Source: Planctomycetota bacterium (GTDB taxonomy: Bacteria > Planctomycetota > UBA11346). From it: a DNA stretch of 64,000 bases. Position 1 is the stretch's first letter, and every line of letters starts with the position of its first letter. Positions 15,862 to 37,233 of this stretch are shown here, piece by piece. The stretch lies in the NCBI GenBank assembly GCA_017302815.1, contig JAFLCQ010000001.1:17652-81651 (forward strand), given 5' to 3'. Below the pieces are notes generated by a model. It was not told the DNA's origin, made no database searches, and saw nothing but the letters and a program-made list of their open reading frames with translations. Position numbers and translations under genes: made by a program.

Positions 15862-18800
15862 TCACGGTTGGGGATTCGCGATGCCCCAGTTGCGAGGGAT
15901 CATGGCTGACGGATCCGTTCCGCTGAATCCGTCCGGGATCCAGGCGATGCGGCGGCCATCCGCGAGCCAGATCGCGGCATTGCAGCGGAACGCTCCGACC
16001 AGGTCGGGCAATTCCTTGGTCTCCTTCGACTTCTTCATGCGCCTGACCTCCATGGATCGCTTCCCGGTCAGTTCCGGAACCAATGCCAGGGGGATCTCCG
16101 CCTCCAGCCGCCAGCCGGCGCGATCGAAACGCTGGCGCACGGCGACCTTCGCGCCCGCGATCGGAGCGAGGCGGGGGCCCGCAGTCGGTCGACAGGCGAG
16201 GGCGAAGCCTGTCATGCTCCCATCGCTGCCCCGGCTGGCGCTGAGCACGATGCGGACATCGCCGGCCACGGGAGCATCACGATCGGGTGCCGAAGGACCG
16301 AGAAGGATCTCCACGGCAGGGAAGGTGCCGAATCCCTTTCCGGGATCGCCTCCTTGGGCGGGCAGGGCCGCCCAGGCGGCAGGATCGCAGACCTCGGCCA
16401 TCACGCAGAGCGCCCCTGCGTCGCGACGCATGCGGATCTCGCCGACCATGGCGCCCCGATCCCGGATCGGGAGACCGGGCACGGCCGGATCCCATTCGAA
16501 ATCGTAGCCGTTGACACCCTGATAGCGGCTGCCGGCGGTGTGCATCCAGGTGCTGGCCGGGATGCTTGTCCGCCCGTTCGCCTCGGTGCCGCGTGGTCTG
16601 GAGCTGGCCAGAACCACCTCTCCGCGCAGCCTGGTGATCTGGTCGCCCCAGATGCCATCGATGTCGACCACCCGCACATCCTCGGTGCTGAGGAAGGCCA
16701 GCCAGCGTCGGCCCGTCTGCGGATGCCGGTACAGCATCCCCTGCGCGACGTTCTCCATATACACGGCAGTCGGCCCTGCCGAGGCGATGCGGCCCTTCTC
16801 ATCCCGATTGACCCACCCCAGAGTGAGTCCATCGCTGGTATAGGCGGTGAAGCAGCTTTCGATCTCGGATGCAAGCAGCACGCCATCAAGCTCTCCGGTG
16901 AGGTTCATCAGCATCTGGTTGTCGCCGTCCTTGGGCAGACGGCCGTCATGATTGCCGATCACGAACTGGACCCGGCCGTCCGGGCCGAGGCGGGCCAGAC
17001 GGGTCTCGCTGGCACGGTCCCAGAAGTTGCGCCCCTGCTCTGGGCCTGCGTTGGTCACGATCCACCGTCCTCCGTCGGCGGCTGGCGGGCTGAATCTGAT
17101 GCCGTAGTTCTCCTGGTCGAAATAGAAGGCGGTCGGTCGATCGTCCTTCCAGACGGAGGTGTACGCCCCGCCAGCATACTGCGGCACGCCTCTGGCATCG
17201 ATGCTTGCCGGCTTGAGGTCCCCATATCCGCCCCGCAGGGTCAGATCGCGGTCGATCCAGGTCCAGCGGTTGCCGGGAAAGCGATCGCGACTGCATTCGT
17301 CGTCTTGCGCAAGTCCATCGCCGTTGCGATCCGACCAGCTGGTCACGTCCTTGCCATCACCGCCGGACGTTCCGGCCCAGGCTGCGCAGATCCAGCGTCC
17401 GGCGTCCCAGCGGAACAGCGCCCCATCGCGCCACAGATAGCGGATGCCGTTCACCCCGGTGAATACCAGCACCCGGCCGTAGCCGGAACCCATGGTCTTG
17501 CGCACCAAGTCGGGGGTGGCGGTGTCGCCCTCGCCGTCCTGGCTGAGGTAGTGGATGGCCGCGATGCGCCAGGCCTTGTCGGATTGCCCGGGATCCTTCG
17601 CAAATTGCGTGTAATCGACCTTCGCCTCGACGTAGTTGGGTGCCCACTGGCTGGTCTGATAGAATATAGTACCGGGATCATCGAGATCGATGCCGACACA
17701 GCCGAAGCCGACCGCTCCATATGTATCCTTGAGGTGCCGGCCATCGCGACTCAGCGTGATGAATCGTCGAGGAGCGTCCCAGCGTTCGGCGCACCACAGG
17801 TTCCCATCAGGGCCGAGGGCGAGATGCGTGATATTGCGGAATTGGAGAGGATCCCACACGGGTACGCGGTTCGATCTCCCACCTGCGCTCCCGAAAACCC
17901 CATTGGCGGTCGCGGCGCCGTCCGCCGCCAGCGCGTAGCGGCGGATCTGCTGCGACGGGCCGAGGTCGGAGACGTAGAAGCCGGATGGTCCGTCCGGACA
18001 CAGGGCGCGCACAGCGGATAGCCCTTCGACCAGTGGCTTGCTTGTGCCGCTGACGAGGTCCAGGCGAAGCACAGAGCCGCCGCTGCCCACGAGGAGGGTT
18101 CGGTCATCGAGCCGGCAGAGGCCCGATGGCGCGGGGATGGCGATATCCGGTAGGGCCTTGCCGCCGTTGGCGTCGATGACCAGCAGGCGATTCTTGCCAG
18201 GTTCGCTGAGGTAGAGCTTTCCGTCCACCAGCGCCAGGGCATCGTAATTGCGCCCCTCCAGGAGGAATTCCGCCGTTCCCCCGGACACACCGCCATAGGC
18301 CCGGGGTCGGCCGGTGGCGGCGTCGAGGCGGAGGATCTTCACCTTCTTGCGGTAAGAGCCGACGATGAGCGCCCACACCGAGCGGCCGTCCGCGGCCAAC
18401 GCATGGACTCCCGAGAAGGCTCCGATCGAGGTGAACCATCGCGCCTTCCCATCGACCGGGTCGATCTTCCGCAGGCAGGGTTGTCCCTCCTCGCCGACCT
18501 GGCCCATGTAGATCCCGGTCGCATCGGCGGCCACCGCTCCGATGCCGCCATGCGCACCACCGATCGATCCGAGGCCGTCGCTGGTACGGAACGATGGGCG
18601 TCCCGAGTTGCCGACGCTGGCGACGAAGGAGGTGCGGATGCCTTCGAAGTATCCGATCAGGTAGCGATACGTGCCTGCCGGAAGCGGCAGGTTCAGCCGA
18701 TCACGGCCGCTCCACAGGAATTCGTGTGATCCGGCAGGATACGGCGTGCAGCGGATGGGCTCAGCGACGATCCAGCCGCGCTCGTCCATGATCACGAGGC

Positions 18801-19638
18801 TGACCTGGGCTGGACGGGGCAGCTCCCAGCGGATCGGCGTTCCGCCCGCGGCCGCCGGGGCGGCGCTTGGCGGTACGGCTGCTGTCTGGCGGTTCCCGGG
18901 ATCGCTGGTGAAGAGGCGCGCTTTGCCCCATTGCTCGGGATGCAGCCGGGCTTCGGCGACGATGTCCCAGGTCGAGGCGGCATCTCCGCCGATGCTGCGC
19001 CACCATGCGGTGGCGACGTTGGCCGTGCCGGACGGATCGCTGAGGATCAGCTGCGCATCGAAGGCGATTTCGAGTCCTGCCTTCGGCGCCAGTCGGAGCG
19101 CCGTCCAGGGGACCGCGAGCTCCAGCGTGTAGCCTTCCCTGGACGCCTTGGCTGCGACCTTGGATCCCTCCAGGGCACCGACCCAATCCATGTCGAGCGT
19201 GCCGGATGCGGTGGTGAAATACCGGTACGGTTTCGAGGTGTCGGGCCAGCGCGGACGCATGGCGAGCAGCGTCGGGCGGTCACCGAACAGACCGGCCAGC
19301 AGGCGTTGTTCGGATCCCTGCACGCCAGGTGAACCGATGCAGAGTCCCACCGCGTCGCCGCCTTTGAACAGCTCCTGAAGCACGGTGGCTCCGTTCTTAA
19401 GCGGGCTGTCGTCGATGACCTGGAACAGGGCATAGAGGGACGAATCGTCCCATCCCAGCTTGAAGCGTGCTGCCGAACCGGTCACGGTGCGGATCTCCTG
19501 TTCCGCCTGGACCGAGTTCCACTCTGTCGCCACCCCGTCCACGAGTGGCGGCTGTGCCAGGCGGACCACGGCCGCCGGGACATCGGCGGCGGCCATGGCC
19601 GAGCATGCGGCCAGCATGATGCAAACGCGCAAGATCAT
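15862..19638 (-). CDS. Giant secreted protein: CBM9/DOMON-like module, FlgD-Ig-like module, beta-propeller-like core, C-terminal CBM9-like module (paralog 1)
   Basis: Signal peptide from ATG 19638 (MILRVCIMLAACSAMAAA). VDGVATEWNS...LYALFQVIDDSPL sugar-binding-like module. AGTYRY Ig module. SVGNSGRPSF and GGAHGGIGAVAADATGIYMG blocks are shared with the paralogs. EF-hand-like loop DRNGDGLAQDDE. Confidence 0.75.
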   Translation of the reverse strand: MILRVCIMLAACSAMAAADVPAAVVRLAQPPLVDGVATEWNSVQAEQEIRTVTGSAARFKLGWDDSSLYALFQVIDDSPLKNGATVLQELFKGGDAVGLCIGSPGVQGSEQRLLAGLFGDRPTLLAMRPRWPDTSKPYRYFTTASGTLDMDWVGALEGSKVAAKASREGYTLELAVPWTALRLAPKAGLEIAFDAQLILSDPSGTANVATAWWRSIGGDAASTWDIVAEARLHPEQWGKARLFTSDPGNRQTAAVPPSAAPAAAGGTPIRWELPRPAQVSLVIMDERGWIVAEPIRCTPYPAGSHEFLWSGRDRLNLPLPAGTYRYLIGYFEGIRTSFVASVGNSGRPSFRTSDGLGSIGGAHGGIGAVAADATGIYMGQVGEEGQPCLRKIDPVDGKARWFTSIGAFSGVHALAADGRSVWALIVGSYRKKVKILRLDAATGRPRAYGGVSGGTAEFLLEGRNYDALALVDGKLYLSEPGKNRLLVIDANGGKALPDIAIPAPSGLCRLDDRTLLVGSGGSVLRLDLVSGTSKPLVEGLSAVRALCPDGPSGFYVSDLGPSQQIRRYALAADGAATANGVFGSAGGRSNRVPVWDPLQFRNITHLALGPDGNLWCAERWDAPRRFITLSRDGRHLKDTYGAVGFGCVGIDLDDPGTIFYQTSQWAPNYVEAKVDYTQFAKDPGQSDKAWRIAAIHYLSQDGEGDTATPDLVRKTMGSGYGRVLVFTGVNGIRYLWRDGALFRWDAGRWICAAWAGTSGGDGKDVTSWSDRNGDGLAQDDECSRDRFPGNRWTWIDRDLTLRGGYGDLKPASIDARGVPQYAGGAYTSVWKDDRPTAFYFDQENYGIRFSPPAADGGRWIVTNAGPEQGRNFWDRASETRLARLGPDGRVQFVIGNHDGRLPKDGDNQMLMNLTGELDGVLLASEIESCFTAYTSDGLTLGWVNRDEKGRIASAGPTAVYMENVAQGMLYRHPQTGRRWLAFLSTEDVRVVDIDGIWGDQITRLRGEVVLASSRPRGTEANGRTSIPASTWMHTAGSRYQGVNGYDFEWDPAVPGLPIRDRGAMVGEIRMRRDAGALCVMAEVCDPAAWAALPAQGGDPGKGFGTFPAVEILLGPSAPDRDAPVAGDVRIVLSASRGSDGSMTGFALACRPTAGPRLAPIAGAKVAVRQRFDRAGWRLEAEIPLALVPELTGKRSMEVRRMKKSKETKELPDLVGAFRCNAAIWLADGRRIAWIPDGFSGTDPSAMIPRNWGIANPQP

Positions 19639-19776
19639 AAATGGTTCCGAGGGTTTGCGGTCATCATCATGCCTGGGCTTTCGAGGCCAGCAATGGCGGC
19701 AGATACACTTCACCTCCAGGGCAAGCTAAAGGCACGAAGATCGCCGGAATCGTGCGTTGTACTGATTTTTCCTGCT

Positions 19777-21663
19777 TTACGGCAGCTCGCGCCGCCCCAT
19801 GGGCGGCTCGGCGAGTCGCGTTCCGAGGCAAGCAGGATCGTCCGGGGATCGAACCTCGGCTCCAGGTGGGGCGATCTGCACCAGCAGGGTCGCCGATGCG
19901 CCGGCGGGGACAGAGACCTCGAAACCGATCAGGTGCACGCCAGGATTCGGGGCGTCAAAGCTGGAAGGTGGCTGCTCGCACGGATAGAGGCGGATAGCGG
20001 CATTGCCAGGTGACAGGATCCGGACGAAGCGCTGCTTTCCGGCCGATGTGAGCACGGCAGTCCTGGGATCGACGATGGCAGCATCCGTCTCGCACGGCAT
20101 GGCCCATCGTACGACGGCTGGTTTGCCGGGCAGCGCGGCGATGGAGTCCTGGATGACCACGGCATGATCGGGCAGCAGTCGTATGCAGCGTTGAGCCGAG
20201 GCGAGCTGCTGTTCATAGACGGAGCTGAGGTCGAGGATCGTGCGGGACGCGTCATGGAACGCGATCGGCGCCGATCCGGACACCCGCTGCCGCTCTCCAT
20301 CCACCTGGAGGACGCTGTGGCTGGCGGATCCGATCCGGAAGACCGACCATCGATCCGATGTCTGGTTGGTGTTCCAGAGATTGATGCCGTGGGACTCCAG
20401 CGAGTGGTAGTCCTGCATGCCGAGATCCCCGGCCCAGCGGACGCCGTCGCTGTCGATGACGAAGCTGCCGGCATCCATGTGCGCATGATTGGTGGCTGCC
20501 GAACCGCCCTTGATCGCGACGTAGGTCGCATCGGCGGTCCATCCGCTGCGATGGACGGCCACGGGGGTCCGACCATTCCCCAGGTAATGCAGGTGCTCCG
20601 TCGGGCATGCGCTGGTATGGCCGGACTTCCACCAGATCAGCACGAACGGCGCCAGGCGGTCGATGCTGGACGGATGGCTATGAAGTATCGTGGTGCGCAG
20701 CGACCATGCGAGAAGCGGATCTCGATTGCGCTCGGACAACCAGGCCAGGGATGGTTCGATCCCTGGTTTCGGGTTGCAGTCGCCATAGTTGAAGAATCGA
20801 CCAGTGGGACCGATCATATGGGCGAAATATGCACCGGATGACATCAGTGCCGGAGTCGTCAGTCCGGCATCGGTGCCGAGGGCCGATTCGAGGGCCGCTA
20901 TCATCAGCAGGTTGAACGAGGTTCCGTAGGACCAGTACATCGGACCTTCGGGATAGACCCCGTCAGGTTCGTATGCGTGCAGGGCCAGGGGGATGTCCGT
21001 CACGGCTTGGAGGATGATGCGCTCGGCCAAGGCCTGCTCGTCCTCGATGACCGCCAGGGCGCCGAGCGTCATTCCGCCATTGCATACCTGATTCCAGTTG
21101 TCGGGGCGCCGGTTCCCCTGGAATGCCATGAGCCCGTTGTAGACGATGGCGGCCCGTATGGCCTGCCGGGCGGAGGCGTCCAGTTCGTGGAACAGCCAAT
21201 CGTATCCGATGGCCAGCGCAGCGGTCATCTCGGCGGTGTCCAGGAAATGGCTCGGGTTCCAGTCGCTGAATCCGGCCGCAGCCAGCATCTCCTCCCTGGC
21301 CCGCTCCAGGTGGCGTCGATCGCCATCGATGCGCCAGAGGAAGGCGCAGCGGACGACCCGGGCCAGGCACGTCCGGGACACATCGAGCAGACGCCGTCCA
21401 ACGACCTCATATCGGACCAGCGGTTTGCGCAGATCCATCTCGGCCTGCATGCGGATGGCGGACATGACCCGGCTCAGGAGCGGATCCTCAAGGCAGCGCC
21501 GCTGCAATGTGGGCAGCTCTTCGTTCGCCAGGAACAAGCGTGGGTGCGCACGTGGAGGGGCGGCGATGCGTCCGGCCAGGGATGCTGGTGCATCCGTGCC
21601 GCCCGCCACGGTCAGGTGCGGATCAGCGAGCCGTTCGCCGGCGTCGATGGTGGCGACATGCAT
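19777..21663 (-). CDS. Heparinase II/III-like polysaccharide lyase family protein
   Basis: N-terminal alpha/alpha toroid-like region (HPRLF...). Central GPMYWSYGT. C-terminal NHAHMDAGSFVIDSDGVRWAGDLG motif typical of the Hepar_II_III domain. Confidence 0.8.
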   Translation of the reverse strand: MHVATIDAGERLADPHLTVAGGTDAPASLAGRIAAPPRAHPRLFLANEELPTLQRRCLEDPLLSRVMSAIRMQAEMDLRKPLVRYEVVGRRLLDVSRTCLARVVRCAFLWRIDGDRRHLERAREEMLAAAGFSDWNPSHFLDTAEMTAALAIGYDWLFHELDASARQAIRAAIVYNGLMAFQGNRRPDNWNQVCNGGMTLGALAVIEDEQALAERIILQAVTDIPLALHAYEPDGVYPEGPMYWSYGTSFNLLMIAALESALGTDAGLTTPALMSSGAYFAHMIGPTGRFFNYGDCNPKPGIEPSLAWLSERNRDPLLAWSLRTTILHSHPSSIDRLAPFVLIWWKSGHTSACPTEHLHYLGNGRTPVAVHRSGWTADATYVAIKGGSAATNHAHMDAGSFVIDSDGVRWAGDLGMQDYHSLESHGINLWNTNQTSDRWSVFRIGSASHSVLQVDGERQRVSGSAPIAFHDASRTILDLSSVYEQQLASAQRCIRLLPDHAVVIQDSIAALPGKPAVVRWAMPCETDAAIVDPRTAVLTSAGKQRFVRILSPGNAAIRLYPCEQPPSSFDAPNPGVHLIGFEVSVPAGASATLLVQIAPPGAEVRSPDDPACLGTRLAEPPMGRRELP

Positions 21664-21779
21664 GTGTGCGCTCCCAGATCTCCGGCGATCCTAGCCAGGG
21701 GCGGCGGTGAGCGGTTCGGTCCTCGCCCCGTCGCTTTCGTGCGACGGTGAAACCAACCCGTCGATGCGGGCTATGAACC

Positions 21780-23231
21780 TCAATACGATATGGCGAACAG
21801 GCGCGGCACCGTGTCCGGAGCCTGGCCACCGGTCATGGTCAGGCGCAGTCTGACGCGCCCTGCCGGTATGCGCTGCGAGAACGGGATGTGGACGGATACG
21901 CCGCCGTGCGCCACTCGTGCCGTGTCGTACACCGTCCCATCCGCGGCGAGAACATCGATGATCACCGATGCCGGGGTGCCTGCCGGTATGTCGACGTTCA
22001 GTCGGAACGGGTGATCTGCGGCATGCTCGATGGGCCTGGTGGTGATGCTGCCATGTGCACCGGCGACCTCCTTGAGCGCATAGGCGTTCCAGCCGACGGT
22101 CGGACGCAGCGAGGCGAATCGGTCCTTGCCGAAGCGCACGCGGCCGATGGCGCAGGCGCCAGGATCGTAGAATGGGAAGGAATGGCTGCAGTTGCCGATG
22201 GCCGTGCCGTGGAAATAGACGGCAGCATCCTCGCCGTTCTCTGTCATGCCCATGGCGACCACGCCACCGGCATCCCAGTCGCCGGTCCGCCCGCGGCGGA
22301 TCCAGCTGCGATGCGCGAGTTCTGGTGCCGCCGGTCGCCAGTCGATGCCATCGTACGAGTAGAGGAGTGTGATGTCGAAATGCTGATCGCACAGATCGGC
22401 GGCGTCGTCGAAGCGCCCGCCCAGTCCGATGAGCATGCGGTCATCGATGCATTTGATCGGCACGATCCCACAATGCGTCTGCCCAGCCGTGGCTGCATGC
22501 GACTGGTTGACCATGCAGACGGGATGCGTTCGCCAGCTGACGAGATCATCGCTGGAGAAGAACGCGACGATCCGATTCGAAGGATGGGGAGGCTCGAACC
22601 AGGCGCCGTTGCTCTGGCCATTCATGATGAAGCGGCCCTGGAATCGGTAGAGCCGTGGTGTTTCGAGCTTCATCGGGATCACTGGCGACCGCCCCGGCGT
22701 CGTCCAGCCCGCGCCATCGGTGCTGTGCGCCAGGCCGACGAAGCTGGTGATGCCTCGTCTTCCGCCGCTGGACATCTGGCGTTCGGCGAGCGCGCGACGA
22801 CGGGCGTCGGGAACCTGGTGCGGCTGCAGGGTCTCCAGCACGGTCAGTGGTGACAGCAGCCGGCCGTCGATGCTGCACACATTGAAGGAATTGCCGGACT
22901 CGTGGACATCCTCGCCCGAAATGGCCCCTAGGCGTTCCCAGGTCAGCCCATCAGGACTGCGCGCCCAGCATCGGGAGATCTTCCGGTTCCGATCTTCCGC
23001 CTGATACCACATCCCGTATCCGCCGCGCCAGGGCAGGACCGATCCGGTGTAGCAGATCTTCCCGTCATCCGGACCTCCAGCCGGTCCGGCCGCAATGATG
23101 GGATTCTGCCGGTCGGGGGATGGTTCGTCCAATGACAGCGACAGGCCCTCCATCCGCTCGAACATCTCCCGCTCGAATGCGTACAGGGTCCGGCTCTGGC
23201 TCAGCATGCCGCCAGCATGCCCGTTTGGCAT
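21780..23231 (-). CDS. Hypothetical glycoside-hydrolase-like beta-propeller protein (GH32/43/130-clan-like fold suspected)
   Basis: Repeated W..a.S.DG..W blade-like motifs (WARSPDGLTWERLG, AHSTDGAGWTTPG, SYDGIDWRPA) with a C-terminal beta-sandwich-like tail. The family call is weak. The start is uncertain (23231 or 23207). Confidence 0.5.
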   Translation of the reverse strand: MPNGHAGGMLSQSRTLYAFEREMFERMEGLSLSLDEPSPDRQNPIIAAGPAGGPDDGKICYTGSVLPWRGGYGMWYQAEDRNRKISRCWARSPDGLTWERLGAISGEDVHESGNSFNVCSIDGRLLSPLTVLETLQPHQVPDARRRALAERQMSSGGRRGITSFVGLAHSTDGAGWTTPGRSPVIPMKLETPRLYRFQGRFIMNGQSNGAWFEPPHPSNRIVAFFSSDDLVSWRTHPVCMVNQSHAATAGQTHCGIVPIKCIDDRMLIGLGGRFDDAADLCDQHFDITLLYSYDGIDWRPAAPELAHRSWIRRGRTGDWDAGGVVAMGMTENGEDAAVYFHGTAIGNCSHSFPFYDPGACAIGRVRFGKDRFASLRPTVGWNAYALKEVAGAHGSITTRPIEHAADHPFRLNVDIPAGTPASVIIDVLAADGTVYDTARVAHGGVSVHIPFSQRIPAGRVRLRLTMTGGQAPDTVPRLFAISY

Positions 23232-23312
23232 GCTGGCGGCAATCCGGTGCGGGAAGAACGCTCGTCGCCGTGGTGAAGTGTCGGGATCCCAGGCGGTTCG
23301 GACATGGCCGGG

Positions 23313-24368
23313 CTAGCCGAGTATCAGATCCTCACGGCGGAAGCGGTAGCCGCGGATCTGGCCTTTCGGGGCATCGTCGACGCAGTAATTGACCACGTAG
23401 ATCGAGGCATCGGGGAGTCGTACCCATCCGGTGTAGCCGCAATCGCTCACGAGCGAGCGGTCGAAATCCAGGGGCATGATCCTGGTGTGAGCCTGGCCGC
23501 GTTCGTCTGCCAGGCAGGACGGCACATCGGTCAGCGCTGCGAACGTGTTCTGGGTCCACCAGCCGACCCAGCCCTGACCACCCTGCATGAAGCGGTGGGT
23601 GATCAGCACCTCGTTGCCATCCAGCAGGCCTGCGACCGGACGATGGCAGCCCGGCAGTGGGAATGCGGTGACCGGACCCCAGGTAGCTCCCGCATCCCGG
23701 CTTATGGTCTTGAACGCATCCAGGCCCCGGAACGAGTTTTCGCGCATGAAGCAGACGAGCTCGCCACCGGGCATTTCGACCAGCGACCCTTCGCACAGGA
23801 AGAGCCCGGGCTCATTGGCGATGGTCACCGGACCATGCCAGGTCGTGCCACGGTCGTCGCTCCACCACAACCGCTGGGCCGATATCGCGGGGGGGGCTTC
23901 GCGGCGATGGGCGCTGAGCAGCCAGCGCCCTGCGTGCGCACCGTGCCGGAGCACGATCAGCCTGTCGGGCACGATGCCTTCGGCCGGGAGGCGGCGTGGC
24001 TCTCCCCAGGTCATGCCGCCATCGTCCGAGATGAACATGTGGTTCTGCTGCACGCGGCTGATCCCGTCGTTGGTGATCAGATCTACCACCACGGCCAGCC
24101 GGCCATCGTCCAGGGCGGTGATGCGCGGGCAGTTCCAGTAGGGGACTAGCTTGGGGTCGCCGGCCGTCGGCCCAGTGACCGGACGCGCAGGGCTCCAGGT
24201 CGCTCCGTGGTCATCGGAATGGCGGCAGAGGATCCTGGTCTGGTCCCGGTTCCCGTGATGCGTGCATTGGGCGAACACGCACACCAGGCGGCGTCCGTCA
24301 TGCAGGGCCACGTCGGGCCAGGCGCAATACCAGGCGTCGTCACGGTGGATGGTGAATCGCTCGATCAT
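23313..24368 (-). CDS. BNR/Asp-box repeat sialidase-family (GH33-like) protein
   Basis: Four Asp-boxes: SDDHGATW, SDDGGMTW, SDDRGTTW, SRDAGATW. ATG at 24368 overlaps the upstream stop (ATGA), so I chose it over the tracked start at 24452. Confidence 0.8.
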   Translation of the reverse strand: MIERFTIHRDDAWYCAWPDVALHDGRRLVCVFAQCTHHGNRDQTRILCRHSDDHGATWSPARPVTGPTAGDPKLVPYWNCPRITALDDGRLAVVVDLITNDGISRVQQNHMFISDDGGMTWGEPRRLPAEGIVPDRLIVLRHGAHAGRWLLSAHRREAPPAISAQRLWWSDDRGTTWHGPVTIANEPGLFLCEGSLVEMPGGELVCFMRENSFRGLDAFKTISRDAGATWGPVTAFPLPGCHRPVAGLLDGNEVLITHRFMQGGQGWVGWWTQNTFAALTDVPSCLADERGQAHTRIMPLDFDRSLVSDCGYTGWVRLPDASIYVVNYCVDDAPKGQIRGYRFRREDLILG

Positions 24369-25273: not shown

Positions 25274-25337
25274 ATTGATCATCCTGATCTGATTATATGG
25301 CCATTCCTCTGGATCGTCGGATAATTGCATCAGGATA

Positions 25338-29200: not shown

Positions 29201-29493
29201 CTGGCAACGTGCTTCCAGCCGATCGGATCGTGGGTCAGCACACGCAACTGGTATCTACCGGCCGGCATCAAGCGTCCGATGTTGTCCCGACCGTCCCACT
29301 CGAAGATCCGGTTGCCGGCCTCTACCTGGGCGTCGACAAGCAGTTCGCGTACCACCCAGCCGTCCGGACGGGTGATGGTCACGCTGACCCGGCAGGCGCG
29401 GTCGATGGCCAGTTGCACGCTGGCGCCTGCCGGTGGTGGATCGGCCCCGGCCAGGAGGGTGACGAGGGCGATCAATAGAAGTGCATGCCGCAT
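26256..29493 (-). pseudogene. Paralog 2 of the giant FlgD-Ig/beta-propeller/CBM9-like family, interrupted by a 1-nt frameshift near 28626
   Basis: Two overlapping minus-strand ORFs (28351..29799 and 26256..28784). The family-like sequence switches frame at GAT GGG CAG GGA GGG c TTT TGG (plus-strand about 28621-28635). The upstream part starts at ATG 29493 with signal peptide MRHALLLIALVTLLAGA. The downstream part carries DRNDDGTAQAEE and two CBM9-like modules. Confidence 0.65.
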
Positions 29494-29524
29494 GGATGAA
29501 CACCGATAGACGATGGCGGGGTGA

Positions 29525-31588
29525 TCACGCTGCCGAAGGATCGAGCAGCAGGACCTCGCCGGCGCGCAGCGGCAGGTAGCCGTCGGAGGAGGTGGCCGGC
29601 CGCTTGCTGAGGGCGCTGATCGCACGGCCTGTGTAGCGCAGCCGACCATCCCGGATCGGCCAGACGCAGGCGGGCCGTCCGGCGTCATCCAGCCATAGGA
29701 CGTGGTCGCCTCCCTCGACCAGGCGCATGCGCCGCATGCGCGGCAGCGCGGCGTTGTACTGGTGGTTGACCCGGGCGAATGCCTCGGCGTGGTGTCCACC
29801 GGGTAGTCGTGGCCTGTTCGACGTCGCGCCGTCCGCCCAGGGATCGGCGCTCGGCGTGACCAGCACGCGATGGGCGGCCATCCAGAAATAGCGCTCCGCG
29901 GTCAGCTGCCCGTCGGCGGCGGCATCACCGTTGCGACAGAAGAAGTTGGTGTACGAGTCGGTGAGGGCGAAGATGTCGTCGTTCTCGACCGTGTCCGACC
30001 ACAGCCGGCGTCGGAACTGGTCCGGGGAAGCCCCGAACACGCCGGCCTGGCCGCAGCCGAAGATGGTGATCGTCTCGGGCCGGCAGGCGCGGTAGCCGGC
30101 CTGCTGCAGGCGGCCCAGCATGCGGAATATCTCGTTGGCCTGCGGCGCCCGGTCTGGCGCCCCCCAGTCGACAGCGGTGATGCCCAGGTTGTGGAAGCTG
30201 TCCCAGAATGCCCCGTTGAGTCCGGTCCGCTGCTGCACCGACCGGACCTGACCTTCCAGTTCGGCGCCGTACGGAGAACGCATCCGGCCGGTGTTCAGGA
30301 TATGGTAGGACGCGTCATAGGGATCGCCGTCCGGCTCCTTCAGCACCCAGTCCTGATGCTCCCTCAGGATGGGGGCGTAGCGGGACAGGTGGTTCGAGAA
30401 CCACTGCGACACCGAGATGCCGTTTGCATGCGCGACGTCGCAGAGCTGGCGCATGCCGGTGTCGCCACCGAACTCCTGCGCATATCGGAAGGCATAGGGA
30501 CAGCAGATGGTCTGGCCGGGGTAGGCTTGGGGATCGCTGGTCGCCGACTCCCATACCCCGAAGGTGTACAGCCAGCGCCAGCCCATGCGGGCCGCATCGG
30601 GGAGGATGTCCATCAACGGCAGCCGCCAGTCGGATCCCCGGCGCTTCAGTTCGGCATCCCAGAGATGGGCGCTGAAGGTCGGTTCGGGAATCTCGGCATG
30701 CATGCCATAGTACGCCAGGATGCGGTCACGGACCACGGCCTGGAGATCGAGCCACAGGTTGCGCCATGCATGGCGTGCGAGGGTGGTGCCGGACCTGTGC
30801 ACCATCAGGGTGCGCTCAGGCGCCGCCACCCGTTCGCCGAGGGGGAAGAACGGCCGGTCGAGGTAATGGATGACGTCTTCGCCGGCGAACTTGTCGATGC
30901 GCGACCGGCTCAGGGATGGACGCTCGCAGAACAGGGCCAGCGCATAGTCGCCCTTGGCCTGGAAATCGAGATGCGAGCTGCCCGCGCCGCGCGGCATCAT
31001 GTCCATGGGATAGCTGCCGACATGAGTGCCCAGCTGGAACTTCTCGGTGGTCGTGAAGGCGCTGTCCCGCGTCACCGGCTGCTCCGGCCGGATCGAGGAC
31101 ATGTCGCGCTGGATCAACGTGCACCCCTCGGCTGATCCTCCGATCTCCCAGGTCGCTTCCTCAAGGATCCAATGCAGTGGATGCCCGGCGCAGTCGATCT
31201 CGATCGTCCAGGCGAGGCCATCCCAGTCGGCACCGTGCAGCCTGCTCTGCTTGACCGGCCTGAAGCGCCAACGCATCCTGGCCGAAGCGGAACCGATCCG
31301 GCGAGTGCGCAGGCGGTCGTCACCCATGGCATCGCCTTCCTGGATGCGCGGCATGCGGGAGCCGTGCGCGTGCAGCACCAGGATCTGCGCCTCGCCGTCC
31401 CGCTCGATGCCAAGCAGGGAGAAATCTGCGAAGCGGATGCCGGTCTCGCTCTCGGCGTACACGGTCCATGGCAACGCGTCCGAACGCAGGATCCGGCCGT
31501 GATGCTCGACCGTCCCGATGCCGAGGAAGTTCTCGCCGTCGGTCTGGAGGTGCAGGGTGAAACCGTTGTCGAAGCAGAGCTTGGCCAT
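29525..31588 (-). CDS. Hypothetical protein (possible TIM-barrel glycosidase-like C-terminal half)
   Basis: GAGGAG RBS 6 nt before ATG 31588. 687 aa with normal coding composition. I recognise no diagnostic motif; the function is guessed from context only. Confidence 0.55.
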   Translation of the reverse strand: MAKLCFDNGFTLHLQTDGENFLGIGTVEHHGRILRSDALPWTVYAESETGIRFADFSLLGIERDGEAQILVLHAHGSRMPRIQEGDAMGDDRLRTRRIGSASARMRWRFRPVKQSRLHGADWDGLAWTIEIDCAGHPLHWILEEATWEIGGSAEGCTLIQRDMSSIRPEQPVTRDSAFTTTEKFQLGTHVGSYPMDMMPRGAGSSHLDFQAKGDYALALFCERPSLSRSRIDKFAGEDVIHYLDRPFFPLGERVAAPERTLMVHRSGTTLARHAWRNLWLDLQAVVRDRILAYYGMHAEIPEPTFSAHLWDAELKRRGSDWRLPLMDILPDAARMGWRWLYTFGVWESATSDPQAYPGQTICCPYAFRYAQEFGGDTGMRQLCDVAHANGISVSQWFSNHLSRYAPILREHQDWVLKEPDGDPYDASYHILNTGRMRSPYGAELEGQVRSVQQRTGLNGAFWDSFHNLGITAVDWGAPDRAPQANEIFRMLGRLQQAGYRACRPETITIFGCGQAGVFGASPDQFRRRLWSDTVENDDIFALTDSYTNFFCRNGDAAADGQLTAERYFWMAAHRVLVTPSADPWADGATSNRPRLPGGHHAEAFARVNHQYNAALPRMRRMRLVEGGDHVLWLDDAGRPACVWPIRDGRLRYTGRAISALSKRPATSSDGYLPLRAGEVLLLDPSAA

Positions 31589-31775
31589 GCGGGACTCCTC
31601 AGCGGATGCACGTTCGTACGAGAGTAGCATCGCTTCCCGCGGTCGTTGTTCACCAGGCTGCCGGAGATGCGCTCTCCTGCCGGGTGAAGCGATCGGAGGA
31701 ATGCTTTATCCGGATAGTGGACTGAATCCCGGGACCAGGCTGGCAGTGGCGGTGACCTCGGGCGATGATCCCGCC

Positions 31776-33002
31776 ATGAACAGACCATACCATCTCGACG
31801 TGCGTGCATGCGGTGCCCTGGGCGACGGTGTCAGCCTTGATACGCAGGCCGTCCAGGCGGCGATCGACCGCTGCGCCGAGGGGGGGGGCGGCACCGTGCT
31901 GGTGCCGGCCGGCCGCTTCCTATGCGGATCGCTGCAATTGCGCAGCCGGGTCGGCTTGCATCTGGCGGCAGGGGCCACGATCCTGGGCAGCCGCAATCCC
32001 GCTGATTACTCGAATGCCGGCCTGTTCCGCGATGCGGTCGGAGCCGACCGCGGTCACGCTCTGATCCGGGCTGATGGGCAGGAAGAGATCTCAATCACCG
32101 GTTCAGGGACGATCGATGGGCAGGGGGCATCGCATCGACCGCCGGTCAGGCCGATGATCCTGCGCTTCACCTCATGCAGACGGGTCAACGTCGACGGTGT
32201 CGTGCTGCGCGATTCGGCCGCCTGGGTTCAGCATTACGTCGCATGCGACGATATGCGGCTGAACGGAGTCTCGGTCCACAGCAGGTCGAACCACAACAAT
32301 GACGGGCTGAATCTTGACGGTTGCCAGCGGGTCCGGGTCTCAGATTGCCTGTTCGACAGCGGCGATGACGCCTTGACCTTGAAGAGCACGACACCGCAAG
32401 CGTGCCGGGACATCGTCATCTCCAACTGCATCATGAGCAGCGCGTGCAATGCGCTGAAGTTCGGAACTGAATCCATCGGCGGATTCCAGAACGTCGCCAT
32501 AAGCAACTGCGTCATCCATGATACGCGTCTGTGCGGGATCACGGTCGCATCGGTCGATGGTGCGTTGATCGACAATGTGATCATATCGGGGATCACCATG
32601 CGCAACGTCGGCGAAGCCCTGCTCGTCAGGCTCGGAAGCCGAGGTTACCATATGCCCAAGGATGCCTCACCGCGTCCGTGCGGTCACCTGCGCAACCTGA
32701 TCATCCGCGATGTCATCGCCACGGGAACCGGTGGGCATGGCAGCGCGATCCTCGGTCTACCGGACCATCCCATCGAGGACGTCTGCATCGAGAACATGCT
32801 CGTGACCGGCAGCGGTGGCGGCCAGAAGATCGATGCGATCGAGGAGGGACCTGCCTACTATCCGCAATATGATCAATGGGGGGGATTCCCCGCCCACGGG
32901 TTGTATTGCCGGCATGTCCGGGGGCTACAGCAGCGGAACCTGCGATTCCGGACCATTGCTCCGGATCCCAGGCCGCCCGTGCGCCTCGACGACGTCTCCT
33001 GA
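31776..33002 (+). CDS. Glycoside hydrolase family 28 (polygalacturonase-like right-handed beta-helix)
   Basis: N-terminus DVRACGALGDGVSLDTQAVQAAIDRCAEGGGGTVLVPAGRF. Catalytic-region pattern NNDGLNLDGCQRVRVSDCLFDSGDDALTLKS. Start taken at internal ATG 31776 of the tracked ORF. Confidence 0.85.
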   Translation: MNRPYHLDVRACGALGDGVSLDTQAVQAAIDRCAEGGGGTVLVPAGRFLCGSLQLRSRVGLHLAAGATILGSRNPADYSNAGLFRDAVGADRGHALIRADGQEEISITGSGTIDGQGASHRPPVRPMILRFTSCRRVNVDGVVLRDSAAWVQHYVACDDMRLNGVSVHSRSNHNNDGLNLDGCQRVRVSDCLFDSGDDALTLKSTTPQACRDIVISNCIMSSACNALKFGTESIGGFQNVAISNCVIHDTRLCGITVASVDGALIDNVIISGITMRNVGEALLVRLGSRGYHMPKDASPRPCGHLRNLIIRDVIATGTGGHGSAILGLPDHPIEDVCIENMLVTGSGGGQKIDAIEEGPAYYPQYDQWGGFPAHGLYCRHVRGLQQRNLRFRTIAPDPRPPVRLDDVS

Positions 33003-33117
33003 TGCTTCAGCCCGCGACTGCAGTAATGTCCAGGACATGCCGTCACCGCATTGGAACGCCGGCGTTCCCTGTTGCCGTGCTCGACAGGTCTGGCCCAGCA
33101 CCGTTTCCGGAGGTTCC

Positions 33118-36100
33118 ATGCGCGTCCGCAGCTTGACCCTCGCCTCCATCGCTCTGTCCGTGGCAGGGCATGCGACCGAGACCGAGAACAACCACCTGCG
33201 CATCCTGCCGGCCACCGCACCGATCGTGGTCGACGGAGCGTTCGCTGATTGGGATCTGACGGCGGGCATCTTCGCCGTCAATGATGCCGAGTACCTGAGG
33301 GAGCATTACGGCCTCTGGTTCCACGCGATGTACGATGCCGAGAATCTCTACATCCTGGCGCGATGGAACGACCCGGCTCCGCTTGACAATCCGGGTTCGA
33401 GCAAGGGCGACCAGCCATTCGCTGGCGACTGCCTGCAGTTCCGCATCATCACCAGATACAAGGAGGCGGATGCCGAACGCGTCTCCCACTGGTCGTGCTG
33501 GCGCGATCGGGATGGCGTGGACATGGTCGATCTCGCCTACGGCCGGACCTTCAAGGATGGCCGGCTGCGGGACGCCCAGGAGAAGGGGGCGAAGCAGGAG
33601 TTCTCCATCGCGGCGGATGGAAAGCACTATGTCCAGGAGATATCGATCCCCTGGTCCTTGCTCACCATCGATGGCAAGCCGCTGACAGCCGGCAGCTCGG
33701 TGCGCATGGCGCTGGAGCCGAACTACACGGCCGGGGCCGGTGGGCGCGTGTCGATCAAGGACCTGTTCAGGCCCGACATCGTGCCTGATCGGGTTTTCAC
33801 CTTCCGCGCCTTTGATCTTTGGGGTGAGGGCCGCCTGCTCGCCGCTTCGGACGGCAAGACCCAGCCGGTACGCCTCGCCGACGGTCGGACATTCCCGGTG
33901 CATATGGACGGAGCTGTGCCGAAGATCGATTGGACCGGGCTGATCACGAGCAAAGATCCAGTCGGTTTCAAGGACATCCGCTATGTCGTGCCGGAGGATG
34001 GCAGCGTATCGCTCAATCTGGTTGATGCGGAAGGACGGGTCGTTCGCCAGCTGCTGACATCGGCGTTCCGCGCTGCCGGCGAACACGTGGTGCAATGGGA
34101 TGGTCTGACCACGCCGTTCCTGGATCAGCCGGGCGACGTGGTTCCGGCAGGAAGCTACAGTTGGAAGGCGATCTGGAATCCAGGCGTCGGACTACGCCTG
34201 CGCGGCTTCGCCAGCAACGGAGGCAGTGTGCCCTGGGACGCCGGTCCTGGTACGAACTGGGGTGGTGATCATGGGACGGTCGAGGCGACGGCGGCGGGTG
34301 ACGGTATCATGTTCCTGGGCTGGGGTGGGGCCGAGGCCGGGAAGGCGCTGGTCGCCTGCGATGAATCCGGTGCGGTGCGCTGGCGCCACATCCGCGGTGG
34401 CATGGGCGGCGCCGGCCTGGTAGGCCACGATCGCGGCGTCGTTTTCGTCGTCGATCATGGCAGCGTCCTCTACCGTCTTGACGCCAAGACCGGGAATTAC
34501 GTCGTGTGGCGGGATGGCACGCTGCCTGAGAGCAAGATCGTCGATCTGTGGGGCAAGCAGCCGCGCAACATGCCGGATCGGGTCGAAGGCATGGATGCCG
34601 GGCATGGCAAGATATACCTGACCTGTGCCGGGGCGGGTTTCCGGCGTCAAGATGTGAGCGACTGGCCGGCGCTGATTGGCAAGATCAAGGCTGATCAGGG
34701 CCCTGGCAAGGTGGTAAAGGCCGGTCTCAATCCCTATTGGGTCAAGCAGCTCGGCTCGAAGTGGAAGCCGGATCTGGACCTCGCGAAATTCGCCGCTTCG
34801 CCGAACTATCAGACTCCCGACCTGCGCGATGACATCGTCCGCTCCCTCAACCGCCTGCTGTCGAGCGCGGATCTTGGCGCAGCGGGCGGCCTGAAAGGCA
34901 CGGAGCTCACCCAGGCCAATCGAGCGATCCTCGAAGCGGGTCTGCCCGAACTGCTGCCGATGCGCAGCAACTTCCTGGCCGTGCTCGATGCGGCCAGCGG
35001 GGCGCTGGAGAAGTTCATCGACCTTCCGCAGCCGCGCTCGGTGCGCGCCATGCAGGATGGCCGGGTGCTGGTCGTGGTGGAGGATGGCACCGCCCTGGTG
35101 GCCGTCGATCCCAAGACCGGGACATCGAGCCGGATCCTTACCGGCAAGGGCATCACCTGCGCGGCCGGACACCCCAGCGGTCGCATCTTCGTGGGGATCG
35201 CCGGCGAACGCCAGCAGGTGGTCATCCTCGACTCCACGGGCGCCGAGATCGGCACGATCGGCCGGAAGGGCGGACGCCAGGCCATCGGGCCCTGGCAGGC
35301 GGATGGCATGCGCAAGCCGGTCAGCCTCAGCTTCGACGGACGCGGGAACCTCTGGGTGGCCGAGTCGACCGGATCACCGAAGCGGGTGAGCGTCTGGGAT
35401 GTCGGAACGGGACGTCTGTTGCGCGATTTCTTCGGCTCGACGCATTACGGCGCGAGCGGCGGAGCCATCCATCCCCGTGATCCTGATGTGATGTTCGGGG
35501 AGGGCTGCGAATGGCGCATCGACCCGAAGACGGGGCGTGGGGCATGCCTTGGTGTCGCCGAGGAGGACTACGCCGACGGGGCGATCTACGCCGAGGCGGG
35601 CGGCAGGACCTATCTTGCGCTCAGTTACAACCGTCCGAAGAAGATCCGCATCTTCGAGCGTCTCGGCGATGGCAAGTTCATCCTGCGCTCATCGCTGGCC
35701 CATGCCGGCGAGGGTAAGGACGCCTCTACCCGGCTCTGGGCCGACACAAACGGGGATGCGACCGAGCAGGCCGATGAAGTCACCGTCCTCCCCGAACCGA
35801 TGTATGCCTGGGGCGCCAACTGGACGGGTTGGGTCAACGAGGATCTGTCGATCGGCGTCGGCCTCGAAAAGCGCAAGCGGGGCACCATCCTGGAGGTCAG
35901 CGGCTTCACCGCCTGCAATGCGCCCCGCTATGACCTGGAAGCCTCGCTGGCGAAGTGGAAGGCTGGCGCCGCCGGTCGCGCCTGCCCCGAGAAACGCGCC
36001 GTGCTGAGCGTCTCGAAGCTGTTGAGCTGCGTGGATCCGTCGACCGGGAAGGTGCGTTGGACCTATCCAAACACCTATGCCGGCGTGCATGGTTCGCACT

Positions 36101-37233
36101 ATGCCACGCCGCCGGAGCCCGGACTGCTGCGCGGAGCGTTCGCCGTCGTGGGAACTGCGCGGCTGCCGGCTCCGCTGGGCACCATCTGGGTGCTGAGCGG
36201 CAACTGCGGCGAGTGGTACATGTTCAATGAGGACGGATTCTTCGTTACCCAGCTGTTCCAGGGCGATCCGTTCAAGCAGCGCTTTCCCGACCAGGCGGTG
36301 CCGGGGGCCATCCTCGATGCTGCGCCCCCCGGGCTCGGTGGCGAGGATTTTGGCGGACATCTGCGGCAGGGAGCTGACGGCAAGGTCTACATCCAGGCGG
36401 GGAAGACGGCGCTATGGAATGTCGAGGTTGTCGGATTGGAGCGCATCAAGGCGCTTCCCGGCGGAACCGTCGAGATATCAACCGCAGACCAGGACAAGGC
36501 CAGGCAGCTGCGCGCCGATCTGCTTCAGGCGGCTGATCCCCGCAAGTTGACGGCGAAGCGGGGGAAGCCCGGCATGACCGGCGATTTCGCCGCTGACTGG
36601 AAGGGCCTGACGACCGTGGCTTTCAAGAAGCAGGACGATGCGGCGGTGAAGGCCGGCCTGGCCTGGGACGACGAGACGCTGCATGTCGCCTGGGAGGTCA
36701 TGGACGCCACGCCCTGGATCAACGGCGCCGACGCGCCGGAATTCATGTACGCCAGGGGCGACACCGTCGATCTCCAGCTGGCGACGGACCCCAAGGCCAA
36801 TGCCAAGCGGACCGATCCGGCCCTTGGAGACCTGCGCATCTCGATAGGACCGTTCCAGGGCAGGGCCGTCGCGGTCGTGTACCGCAAGGTCGCTGAAGCC
36901 AAGAAGCCCAAGGTCTTCAGCTCGGGAGTGGTCAAGGAGTACGTCATGGACAGCGTCGTGACCCTGGCGCGGGCGGAGATCAAAGTCCGCGTAGACGCAG
37001 CCAAGCGGCTCTACGTGGTCGAGGCTGCGCTGCCCCTTGCAGAGCTCGGACTGGTTCCGCGGACCGGGCTCGTCCTCAGCGGAGATTTCGGGGTCACGCA
37101 TGGCGATGCGTCGGGATCCGATACCGCCCTGCGCTCGCACTGGAGCAACCGGGAAACCGGCCTGGTGAACGATGAGGTGTTCGAGCTGATGATGTCGCCG
37201 AAGCGCTGGGGAGCGATCTCTTTCGCCGAATGA
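33118..37233 (+). CDS. Giant secreted protein: CBM9-like, FlgD-Ig-like, beta-propeller-like core, C-terminal CBM9-like (paralog 3)
   Basis: GGAGG RBS before ATG 33118. Signal peptide MRVRSLTLASIALSVAG. VDGAFADWDL...LYILARWNDPAPL module. AGSYSW Ig module. ASNGGSVPW and GGDHGTVEATAAGDGIMFLG blocks are shared with the paralogs. DTNGDATEQADE loop. Confidence 0.75.
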   Translation: MRVRSLTLASIALSVAGHATETENNHLRILPATAPIVVDGAFADWDLTAGIFAVNDAEYLREHYGLWFHAMYDAENLYILARWNDPAPLDNPGSSKGDQPFAGDCLQFRIITRYKEADAERVSHWSCWRDRDGVDMVDLAYGRTFKDGRLRDAQEKGAKQEFSIAADGKHYVQEISIPWSLLTIDGKPLTAGSSVRMALEPNYTAGAGGRVSIKDLFRPDIVPDRVFTFRAFDLWGEGRLLAASDGKTQPVRLADGRTFPVHMDGAVPKIDWTGLITSKDPVGFKDIRYVVPEDGSVSLNLVDAEGRVVRQLLTSAFRAAGEHVVQWDGLTTPFLDQPGDVVPAGSYSWKAIWNPGVGLRLRGFASNGGSVPWDAGPGTNWGGDHGTVEATAAGDGIMFLGWGGAEAGKALVACDESGAVRWRHIRGGMGGAGLVGHDRGVVFVVDHGSVLYRLDAKTGNYVVWRDGTLPESKIVDLWGKQPRNMPDRVEGMDAGHGKIYLTCAGAGFRRQDVSDWPALIGKIKADQGPGKVVKAGLNPYWVKQLGSKWKPDLDLAKFAASPNYQTPDLRDDIVRSLNRLLSSADLGAAGGLKGTELTQANRAILEAGLPELLPMRSNFLAVLDAASGALEKFIDLPQPRSVRAMQDGRVLVVVEDGTALVAVDPKTGTSSRILTGKGITCAAGHPSGRIFVGIAGERQQVVILDSTGAEIGTIGRKGGRQAIGPWQADGMRKPVSLSFDGRGNLWVAESTGSPKRVSVWDVGTGRLLRDFFGSTHYGASGGAIHPRDPDVMFGEGCEWRIDPKTGRGACLGVAEEDYADGAIYAEAGGRTYLALSYNRPKKIRIFERLGDGKFILRSSLAHAGEGKDASTRLWADTNGDATEQADEVTVLPEPMYAWGANWTGWVNEDLSIGVGLEKRKRGTILEVSGFTACNAPRYDLEASLAKWKAGAAGRACPEKRAVLSVSKLLSCVDPSTGKVRWTYPNTYAGVHGSHYATPPEPGLLRGAFAVVGTARLPAPLGTIWVLSGNCGEWYMFNEDGFFVTQLFQGDPFKQRFPDQAVPGAILDAAPPGLGGEDFGGHLRQGADGKVYIQAGKTALWNVEVVGLERIKALPGGTVEISTADQDKARQLRADLLQAADPRKLTAKRGKPGMTGDFAADWKGLTTVAFKKQDDAAVKAGLAWDDETLHVAWEVMDATPWINGADAPEFMYARGDTVDLQLATDPKANAKRTDPALGDLRISIGPFQGRAVAVVYRKVAEAKKPKVFSSGVVKEYVMDSVVTLARAEIKVRVDAAKRLYVVEAALPLAELGLVPRTGLVLSGDFGVTHGDASGSDTALRSHWSNRETGLVNDEVFELMMSPKRWGAISFAE

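Follow-up and report, generated by a model that had tools for sequence, protein, structure and literature searches.

Three CBM9-bearing double-propeller paralogs of a planctomycete belong to an undescribed superfamily with a possible role in glycan processing

In this study, we analysed a 64,000-nucleotide stretch of DNA from a Planctomycetota bacterium (contig JAFLCQ010000001.1, positions 17,652 to 81,651; hereafter the window; G+C content ~65%), in which three large genes, P1, P2 and P3, are interleaved with genes for carbohydrate-active enzymes (CAZymes). We show here that P1, P2 and P3 are true paralogs built on one colinear plan, and comparison with their orthologs places them in separate ancient subfamilies. 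P1 and P3, and P2 before its decay, are predicted to be secreted proteins made up of several modules, and they represent an undescribed superfamily of the Planctomycetes–Verrucomicrobia–Chlamydiae (PVC) group and Armatimonadota. Each part has a known fold, namely a carbohydrate-binding module (CBM) of family 9, an immunoglobulin (Ig) domain of the FlgD type, one propeller of the NHL type and one generic propeller; what appears to be new is their combination, including the second propeller, together with a set of invariant residues and a genomic partnership between P1-type genes, P3-type genes and a regulator. We tentatively propose that P1 and P3 represent a new family of glycan-active enzymes with a site on the top face of the first propeller.

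Results

Long open reading frames (ORFs) lie at 15862-19713(-), 26256-28784(-), 28351-29799(-, in a different frame) and 32815-37233(+), and the start codons of P1-P3 were picked to give signal-like N-termini. The resulting genes are present where a first-pass annotation of this DNA, made from the letters alone, had put them (Table 1), and its claim that they share colinear blocks is borne out, as every pair gives significant colinear BLASTP segments (1e-35 to 1e-8 overall). The E values of the segments are 1.7e-35, 4e-24 and 3e-16 for P1/P2, 9e-15, 8e-14 and 7e-8 for P1/P3 and 4e-15, 3e-12 and 2e-8 for P2/P3, and pairwise and multiple alignments uphold homology between all three. A fourth copy was sought by tblastn across the window and none was found. 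Among the six shared blocks that had been listed, the first three (the Ig end AG[TRS]Y, SVGNSG/ASNGGS and GG.HG...A.A) are seen in a guided three-way alignment and the sixth, the CBM9-type modules, is recovered by Pfam as described below. The fifth, DGFFVT, is spelled as listed in two of the proteins, P2 and P3, but P1 reads SDGLTLG, though the Asp-Gly pair is invariant in the family. P2 had rightly been said to lack an N-terminal CBM-like module; it carries an extra CBM9 at its C-terminus instead.

The three genes had also been taken for a locally expanded family. This description does not hold, since each paralog has its own orthologs in other phyla at 33-60% identity, compared with a mutual identity of 23-35% between P1, P2 and P3. 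The orthologs come from Planctomycetota, Verrucomicrobiota, Lentisphaerales, Kiritimatiellia and Armatimonadota. Their identities are 37-60% for type 1 (P1), 33-43% for type 2 (P2) and 39-51% for type 3 (P3), and because such orthologs exist elsewhere for each copy, the duplications are judged to be ancient. Recent local gene amplification was considered and rejected, the identities being far too low and each copy having orthologs of its own. The family, as recovered by searches with P1 and P2 as queries and by a scan of 1.84 billion cluster representatives, is rare: 435 representatives pass a cut-off of E<=1e-3, and 35 of them pass E<=1e-30. Carriers are found in Planctomycetota, Phycisphaerae, Opitutales, Chthoniobacterales, Methylacidiphilales, Lentisphaerales/Victivallis, Kiritimatiellia and Armatimonadota, and all annotated members are named 'hypothetical' or by a generic domain label. 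We found no description of the family in the literature on CBM9, FlgD or NHL propellers in Planctomycetes and Verrucomicrobia, and no name, Pfam model or structure for the domain combination. Most type-1 orthologs (P0002-P0014 and others) are ~1670 aa long and bear a C-terminal extension of ~400 aa without a Pfam match, which is missing from P1, its 95%-identical ortholog of equal length (P0001) and a few others. On one metagenomic contig (L037, 4305-24561) four superfamily members of 1271, 1666, 1184 and 1255 aa stand in tandem, with genes for GDSL esterases and for an NHL protein of 578 aa in between, so that tandem arrays of the family are seen outside the window as well.

P1 and P3 share the order CBM9-like module, FlgD-type Ig domain, propeller A, propeller B and CBM9-like module, and P2 has the order Ig domain, propeller A, propeller B, CBM9-like module and extra CBM9; propeller A of P3 bears a helical insertion of ~150 aa. 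The earlier domain calls (CBM9-like, FlgD-Ig, beta-propeller and EF-hand-type loop) stand, except that two propellers are present where one had been noted. Pfam CBM9_1 (PF06452, gathering cut-off 23.4 bits) is matched above its cut-off by P1 (38.7 bits), P2 (52.7) and P3 (25.1). FlgD_ig (PF13860, cut-off 27) is matched by P1 (35.7) and P2 (33.4); P3 falls below it at 22.4, although its Ig domain aligns to that of P1 with an E value of 1.6e-5. In searches against PDB sequences, a profile of the family matched the xylanase CBM9 modules 7nwn (E 1.5e-9) and 1i82 (E 4.4e-9), as well as FlgD, and the CBM9 module of P2 matched 1I82, the CBM9 of Thermotoga maritima Xyn10A, with an E value of 1.6e-4. 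A TAWW motif is conserved in the family, and its equivalence to the sugar-binding Trp of CBM9 is not established, the 1I82 alignment ending earlier. The module that follows the propellers in P1 aligns to the N-terminal CBM9-like module with a hhalign probability of 96.7% (E 4.7e-10), and on this profile comparison it is a diverged CBM9-like domain.

An AlphaFold2 (AF2) model of P1 residues 245-1258 (1014 residues), built with 35 family sequences, reached a pLDDT of 89.8 and a pTM of 0.90. It contains the Ig domain as a beta-sandwich (fragment residues 20-100, pLDDT >90), about 12 four-stranded blades and a C-terminal beta-sandwich; by DSSP, approximately six of the blades, at fragment residues 122-396, make up propeller A. 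Searched against PDB, the family profile matched NHL propellers (Pizza, PknD, TRIM71, TRIM2 and Brat) with E values of 6e-38 to 1e-11 in the part that corresponds to these first six blades; for Pizza, PknD and TRIM71 the values are 6e-38 to 1e-19, over profile positions 480-640. P1 alone reaches the threshold of no NHL-clan family in Pfam, but individual relatives do match Pfam NHL, and in relatives the NHL-clan enzyme families Vgb_lyase, SGL and Glu_cyclase_2 give sub-threshold matches. At the profile level, propeller A belongs to the NHL type. Propeller B has no sequence relative in PDB that the family profile could find, and a hhalign comparison of propellers A and B for internal duplication was not significant (probability 43%, with no more than 15 columns aligned).

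For the ~650-residue core of P1-P3, Pfam reports one generic match, to the PQQ_2 (BamB-like) repeat in P3, and nothing else; NCBIfam gave no match to the propeller core, and sequence searches of PDB with P1 and P3 gave none for the core either. Using Foldseek, propeller B modelled alone resembled RACK1, the TRIM2 NHL domain, PknD and BamB (E ~1e-5, target-normalized template modelling (TM) score 0.4-0.55), and the full P1 model resembled generic tandem propellers with a query-normalized TM score of at most 0.35 (BT4663, BT4673, LRP2, Sevenless, DDB1 and Elp2). The statement in the first-pass annotation that no catalytic family can be assigned is thus supported by Pfam, NCBIfam, PDB and Foldseek with two high-confidence models, all of which returned only generic propeller or NHL matches. 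No characterized CAZy catalytic family, be it glycoside hydrolase (GH), polysaccharide lyase (PL), carbohydrate esterase (CE) or auxiliary activity (AA), was found for the core by Pfam, NCBIfam, PDB sequence and profile searches or Foldseek, and none of these searches put the core in a characterized lectin family.

Among members that are only 22-28% identical, a small set of residues is invariant or at least 90% conserved (P1 numbering). It comprises H363, E384, R588, W615, E618 and R625, all in propeller A, and, in propeller B, D654, D798, D936, E962 and the residues of the calcium-type loop described below. According to the strand order of the AF2 model (DSSP), H363 lies just before the inner strand of blade 1 and E384 in the B-C loop of that blade. 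R588 is on the D-A loop that leads from blade 5 to blade 6, and E618 and R625 stand on either side of the B-C turn in blade 6. In the usual propeller topology, D-A and B-C loops are located on the top face. For this reason, these five residues are predicted to come together on the top face of propeller A, on the adjacent blades 5, 6 and 1.

The fourth shared block had been described as a canonical EF-hand-type loop. Each of P1, P2 and P3 indeed contains one D-x-N-x-D-[GA]-x-x-Q-x-x-E loop at a homologous position, compared with an expectation from shuffling of 0.03-0.06 per protein, and W-x-D-x-N-G-D-G-x-V-Q-x-x-E is kept in 33 of the 35 aligned family members. With D1, N3, D5, G6, a hydrophobic residue at position 8 and E12, all three loops agree with the 12-residue Ca2+ loop consensus of the EF-hand. 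However, the loop is flanked in the AF2 model by a short strand before it and a three-residue helix after it (DSSP) rather than by the helix-loop-helix of a canonical EF-hand, there is one copy per protein instead of the usual pair, and Pfam gives no EF-hand match in P1-P3. We therefore describe it as an EF-hand-type loop in a non-EF-hand setting, which is predicted from its motif to bind Ca2+. In its 12-residue pattern and family-wide conservation it resembles the DxDxDG or EF-hand-type loops known outside helix-loop-helix contexts, such as dockerin-type and propeller-embedded loops, from which it differs in its beta-strand and three-residue helix flanks, its single copy and the absence of a Pfam EF-hand match.

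Type-1 and type-3 genes are found no more than 10 kb apart in at least seven loci outside the window (L001, L006, L019, L025, L032, L035 and L037), and in five of these (L019, L025, L032, L035 and L037) a GntR/LacI-type regulator is located near the pair. A further gene may belong to this partnership. It codes in the window for a 586-aa protein that matches neither Pfam nor PDB; its family has at least 92 'hypothetical' homologs, mostly from Planctomycetota. Homologs of ~600 aa are encoded near type-1 and type-3 genes in two of the loci (L035, 8104-9939; L025, 2333-4171), and at 61-63% identity they are better conserved than P1 or P3, which makes the 586-aa protein a possible partner of the P1- and P3-type proteins. 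The set conserved between L025 and L035 consists of the regulator, the P3-type protein, the 600-aa protein and the P1-type protein, joined in L035 by a GDSL esterase; neither a glycoside hydrolase nor a lyase of known type is part of it.

The frameshift that had been reported in P2 is real in this assembly and is located at ~28615/28616. Compared with an intact ortholog, P0188 (1284 aa), the 5' frame covers residues 45-308 (51% identity) and the 3' frame residues 535-1283 (43% identity). P0188 residues 309-534 (226 aa) are absent from P2, exactly where the frame changes, and, judged on the P1 model and the alignment, this gap takes blades out of both propellers. Because 226 codons are missing at the very point of the frame change, we conclude that P2, compared with P0188, has undergone an internal deletion there and is a pseudogene. 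The NCBI annotation of P2 holds a 739-aa fragment only (P0187, 'MAG: hypothetical protein J0M02_00200 [Planctomycetes bacterium]'). As the window derives from a metagenome-assembled genome and one wrong base can make a frameshift, the break could be thought a sequencing or assembly error in an intact and functional gene. We consider this very improbable, since the defect is larger than a single base, the 226 missing codons span blades of both propellers and the DNA between the two P2 frames is too short to hold the missing segment; a simple sequencing error was accordingly rejected. In addition, a sister strain is without the entire locus. Its contig L034 is colinear with window positions 15642-32928 at 88.6-92.7% (~90%) DNA identity, and its P1 ortholog is 95% identical in protein, but 21 bp (L034 3394-3414) stand in place of the segment 26241-29537. 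In the window, both edges of this segment carry the hexamer AGGATC, of which the sister strain has a single copy; this weakly suggests a microhomology-mediated deletion. The turnover of P2 shows that the gene set changes between close strains.

The setting of the paralogs among CAZyme genes, with heparinase-like, sialidase-like and GH28 neighbours, was confirmed by Pfam matches to Hepar_II_III_C, BNR_2 and GH28 (Table 1). A co-directional array that ends in P1 encodes an aldolase of the dihydrodipicolinate synthase (DHDPS) family, the BNR_2 sialidase-like protein, a 483-aa protein, the heparinase-II/III-like protein and P1 itself, and is divergent from an AraC regulator gene; the same order is seen in L034. 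P3 lies between GH28 upstream and a Calx-beta protein downstream, close to the GntR/LacI regulator; the DHDPS-family aldolase, AraC regulator, Calx-beta protein and GntR/LacI regulator are all encoded within the window. Elsewhere, family members adjoin GH36, GH38, two sulfatases and GH29, or GDSL esterases and a GH63-like enzyme, or GH4, GH38 and GH2, or MBOAT and AlgX, and some family loci are without any CAZymes.

Table 1. Location of the paralogs, their modules and selected neighbouring genes in the window
Feature	Position	Strand	Description and basis
P1	15862-19638	-	Intact type-1 paralog, 1258 aa, hydrophobic signal-like N-terminus; ORF and translation
P1 N-terminal CBM9-like module (aa 25-245)	18904-19566	-	Pfam CBM9_1, E=1.3e-9, 38.7 bits
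P1 FlgD-type Ig (aa 263-345)	18604-18852	-	Pfam FlgD_ig, E=8.8e-9
P1 propeller A (aa ~346-645)	17704-18603	-	About six four-stranded NHL-type blades; profile match and DSSP
P1 propeller B (aa ~646-1012)	16603-17703	-	Divergent propeller; AF2, pLDDT 85.7
P1 EF-hand-type 12-residue loop (aa 770-781)	17296-17331	-	DRNGDGLAQDDE; homologous position
P1 C-terminal CBM9-like module (aa ~1050-1258)	15865-16491	-	hhalign; AF2 beta-sandwich
P2	26256-29493	-	Conceptual join at ~28615/28616, 1079 aa
P2 5' part	28616-29493	-	Signal-like sequence, FlgD_ig (Pfam E=4.6e-8), first blades of propeller A
P2 3' part, other frame	26256-28616	-	Rest of propeller B, CBM9-like module, extra C-terminal CBM9
P2 loop (aa 324)	28491-28526	-	DRNDDGTAQAEE; homologous position
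P2 extra C-terminal CBM9	26277-26894	-	Pfam CBM9_1, E=6.4e-14; PDB 1i82 match
Strain-variable segment, whole P2 locus	26241-29537		blastn of L034 against the window
P3	33118-37233	+	Intact type-3 paralog, 1371 aa
P3 CBM9-like N module	~33205-33762	+	Part of P3
P3 Ig	33964-34176	+	Aligns to P1 Ig
P3 loop (aa 876)	35743-35778	+	DTNGDATEQADE; homologous position, in propeller B
P3 CBM9-like C module	36565-37215	+	Part of P3
Heparinase-like, Hepar_II_III_C	19777-21663	-	Pfam
BNR_2 sialidase-like protein	23313-24452		Pfam
GH28	31518-33002	+	Pfam; upstream of and co-directional with P3
GntR helix-turn-helix (HTH) and periplasmic-binding-fold (LacI-like) regulator	40534-41658	-	Pfam; homologs flank the P3/P1 pair in five loci
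586-aa secreted protein, unknown family	55655-57415	-	Synteny with P3- and P1-type genes

Several other genes of the window deserve mention. The array at 19777-26240, in which the DHDPS-family aldolase is NanA-like and which is conserved in L034, looks like an operon that serves the utilization of an acidic glycan, either nonulosonic or uronic. Directly downstream of P3, at 37362-40727(+), an 1121-aa protein with three Calx-beta domains has a weak, sub-threshold Peptidase_C25-like N-terminal region. Large genes without a family are interleaved with the paralogs: the 483-aa protein at 21780-23231(-) and an 1110-aa protein at 43494-46826(+) have no significant family match, a 701-aa protein at 29525-31630(-) shows a faint GHL6 hint only (E 0.06) and a 518-aa protein at 41825-43381(+) has a pectate-lyase-like beta-helix. 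These four are further candidates for CAZymes of unknown type. N_methyl prepilin-type motifs are found in proteins at 50349-51692(+) and 54400-55518(+), which flank a 920-aa protein of unknown family at 51740-54502(+); in L001 and L002, the type-1 gene likewise comes after one for a DUF1559-type pseudopilin. At the edges of the window, a complete resistance-nodulation-division (RND) efflux operon at 444-6356(+) encodes an outer-membrane factor (OEP), an HlyD_D23 membrane-fusion protein and an AcrB-family pump, and a GH95-family (fucosidase-type) gene lies at 60880-63312(+); the long ORF antisense to the latter, at 61741-63903(-), matches no family and is probably an artefact of high G+C content.

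Discussion

The reading that we favour, tentatively and with somewhat less than even confidence, is that P1 and P3 are glycan-active enzymes. In such a mechanism, the CBM9-like modules would hold the protein on a polysaccharide, while the NHL-type propeller A would present a top-face site across blades 5, 6 and 1 built from H363, E384, R588, E618 and R625 of P1, which are invariant in all three subfamilies. The DxNxDGxxQxxE loop of propeller B would bind Ca2+ and stabilize the propeller or an inter-domain contact rather than take part in catalysis. P1-type and P3-type proteins would cooperate, perhaps joined by the 586-aa partner, and a GntR/LacI regulator that responds to sugar would control them. 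We favour this reading because CBM-type modules flank the core, because the NHL clan includes lyases and lactonases and because the conserved L025 and L035 sets contain no known glycoside hydrolase or lyase, so that any glycan-cleaving activity there must reside in these proteins. Secretion, glycan binding, Ca2+ binding and catalysis are predictions. A number of observations weigh against the proposal. Neither Pfam, NCBIfam nor the family profile searched against PDB gave a significant match to any catalytic family, and the best structural neighbours are binding or scaffold propellers, namely sensors of hybrid two-component systems (HTCS), PknD, TRIM NHL domains, BamB and WD40 proteins. The neighbouring CAZyme families vary by locus and are absent from some, which would suit a general binder equally well. 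Furthermore, the clustering of the invariant residues was deduced from strand order and not from coordinates, and secretion was assessed by visual inspection of the N-terminal sequences.

Nearly as likely, in our judgement, is that the proteins do not catalyse anything themselves but capture glycans at the surface or in the periplasm as scaffolds, passing polysaccharide to the varied enzymes encoded beside them; they would then be a PVC-group counterpart of the surface glycan-binding proteins of Bacteroidetes. The structural neighbours that bind, including the glycan-sensing tandem propellers BT4663 and BT4673, the two CBM9-like modules in each protein, the many different GH, PL and CE families found as neighbours across loci and the lack of a catalytic signature in the Pfam, NCBIfam and profile searches are all consistent with this. 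However, the charged residues are strictly invariant across coexisting subfamilies, which would be unusual for ligand contacts that determine specificity, and the regulator-linked set of L025 and L035 holds no known glycoside hydrolase or lyase to receive the substrate. It is considerably less probable that the proteins have a role unrelated to glycans, as adhesins, protein-interaction platforms or envelope sensors; the CBM9_1 matches would then stem from the wider DOMON-like fold and not from a sugar-binding function. Several relatives are encoded in CAZyme-free loci beside two-component systems, Ser/Thr kinases and HEAT or CHAT proteins, and the related NHL propellers of PknD, teneurin and TRIM proteins are sensors or interaction modules. 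Yet the match is specifically to xylanase CBM9, whose characteristic motifs WDE..LY and IPW are recognizable, the proteins are free of transmembrane and signalling domains, and a sugar-type GntR/LacI regulator is linked in five loci and CAZymes or esterases in most of the loci examined; moreover, the CBM9-like consensus is without the conserved haem-ligating Met/His, making a DOMON cytochrome role unlikely.

Two more specific assignments were tried and rejected. An AA8/AA12-like pyrroloquinoline quinone (PQQ) oxidoreductase finds no GSDH or PQQ-enzyme match, only the generic PQQ_2 in P3, and no haem ligands, and an HTCS-type sensor finds no Pfam matches to Reg_prop, Y_Y_Y, HisKA, HATPase or Response_reg and TM scores of at most 0.25. 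The enzyme reading can also be carried further. P1-type, P3-type and the 586-aa protein may together form an extracellular glycan-degrading system of PVC-group and Armatimonadota bacteria that is independent of Sus-like machinery, with its own GntR/LacI sensor and with a new NHL-propeller CAZy family (lyase, hydrolase or esterase) at its centre. This is a speculation to which we attach a low probability.

Each part of the proteins can be compared with a better known system. The flanking modules are homologous to the CBM9 of T. maritima Xyn10A (1I82, PF06452) and have the beta-sandwich as well as the motifs WDE..LY and GY.vE..IPW in common with it, but here they flank a propeller core instead of a GH10 domain and number two per protein, of which one is highly diverged. 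Profile comparison shows propeller A to be homologous to the six-bladed NHL propellers (the PknD sensor 1RWI, Pizza, TRIM71, TRIM2 and Brat); unlike these, it is fused to a second propeller unrelated to it in sequence and bears its own invariant His/Glu/Arg set. The periplasmic sensor domains of BT4663 and BT4673 of Bacteroides thetaiotaomicron recognize glycans in polysaccharide utilization loci. These HTCS sensors (4A2L, 3OTT and 3VA6) were the top Foldseek matches of the full model and likewise combine tandem propellers with an Ig-like domain; however, the TM score is 0.17-0.25, there is no sequence similarity and transmembrane segments, kinases and response regulators are all absent from P1-P3. 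Double propellers of eukaryotes score just as well, and hence the resemblance is generic. Families PL11, PL22, PL24, PL25, PL42, GH74 and GH145 have propeller active sites, sometimes Ca2+-dependent, and occur with CBMs and in glycan-degradation loci. With these families, P1-P3 share the general idea only; none was among the Pfam, NCBIfam, PDB-sequence or Foldseek matches, and membership of P1-P3 in any of them is not supported.

Planctomycetes, Verrucomicrobia, Lentisphaerae and Kiritimatiellia play a major part in the breakdown of complex and sulfated polysaccharides, and much of their machinery is annotated as 'hypothetical'. To our knowledge, these bacteria have none of the Sus-type capture systems that Bacteroidetes possess. 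P1-P3 are the kind of modular CBM-bearing protein that belongs to polysaccharide-utilization regions. The work defines a rare but phylum-spanning family by a fixed architecture and a few invariant polar residues, and the conserved partnership of P1-type and P3-type proteins, GntR/LacI regulator and 600-aa protein provides a testable candidate for a missing function in the binding or cleavage of glycans. If the proteins are catalytic, they would constitute a new propeller-based CAZyme family; if they are not, they would be candidate glycan-capture proteins for PVC bacteria.

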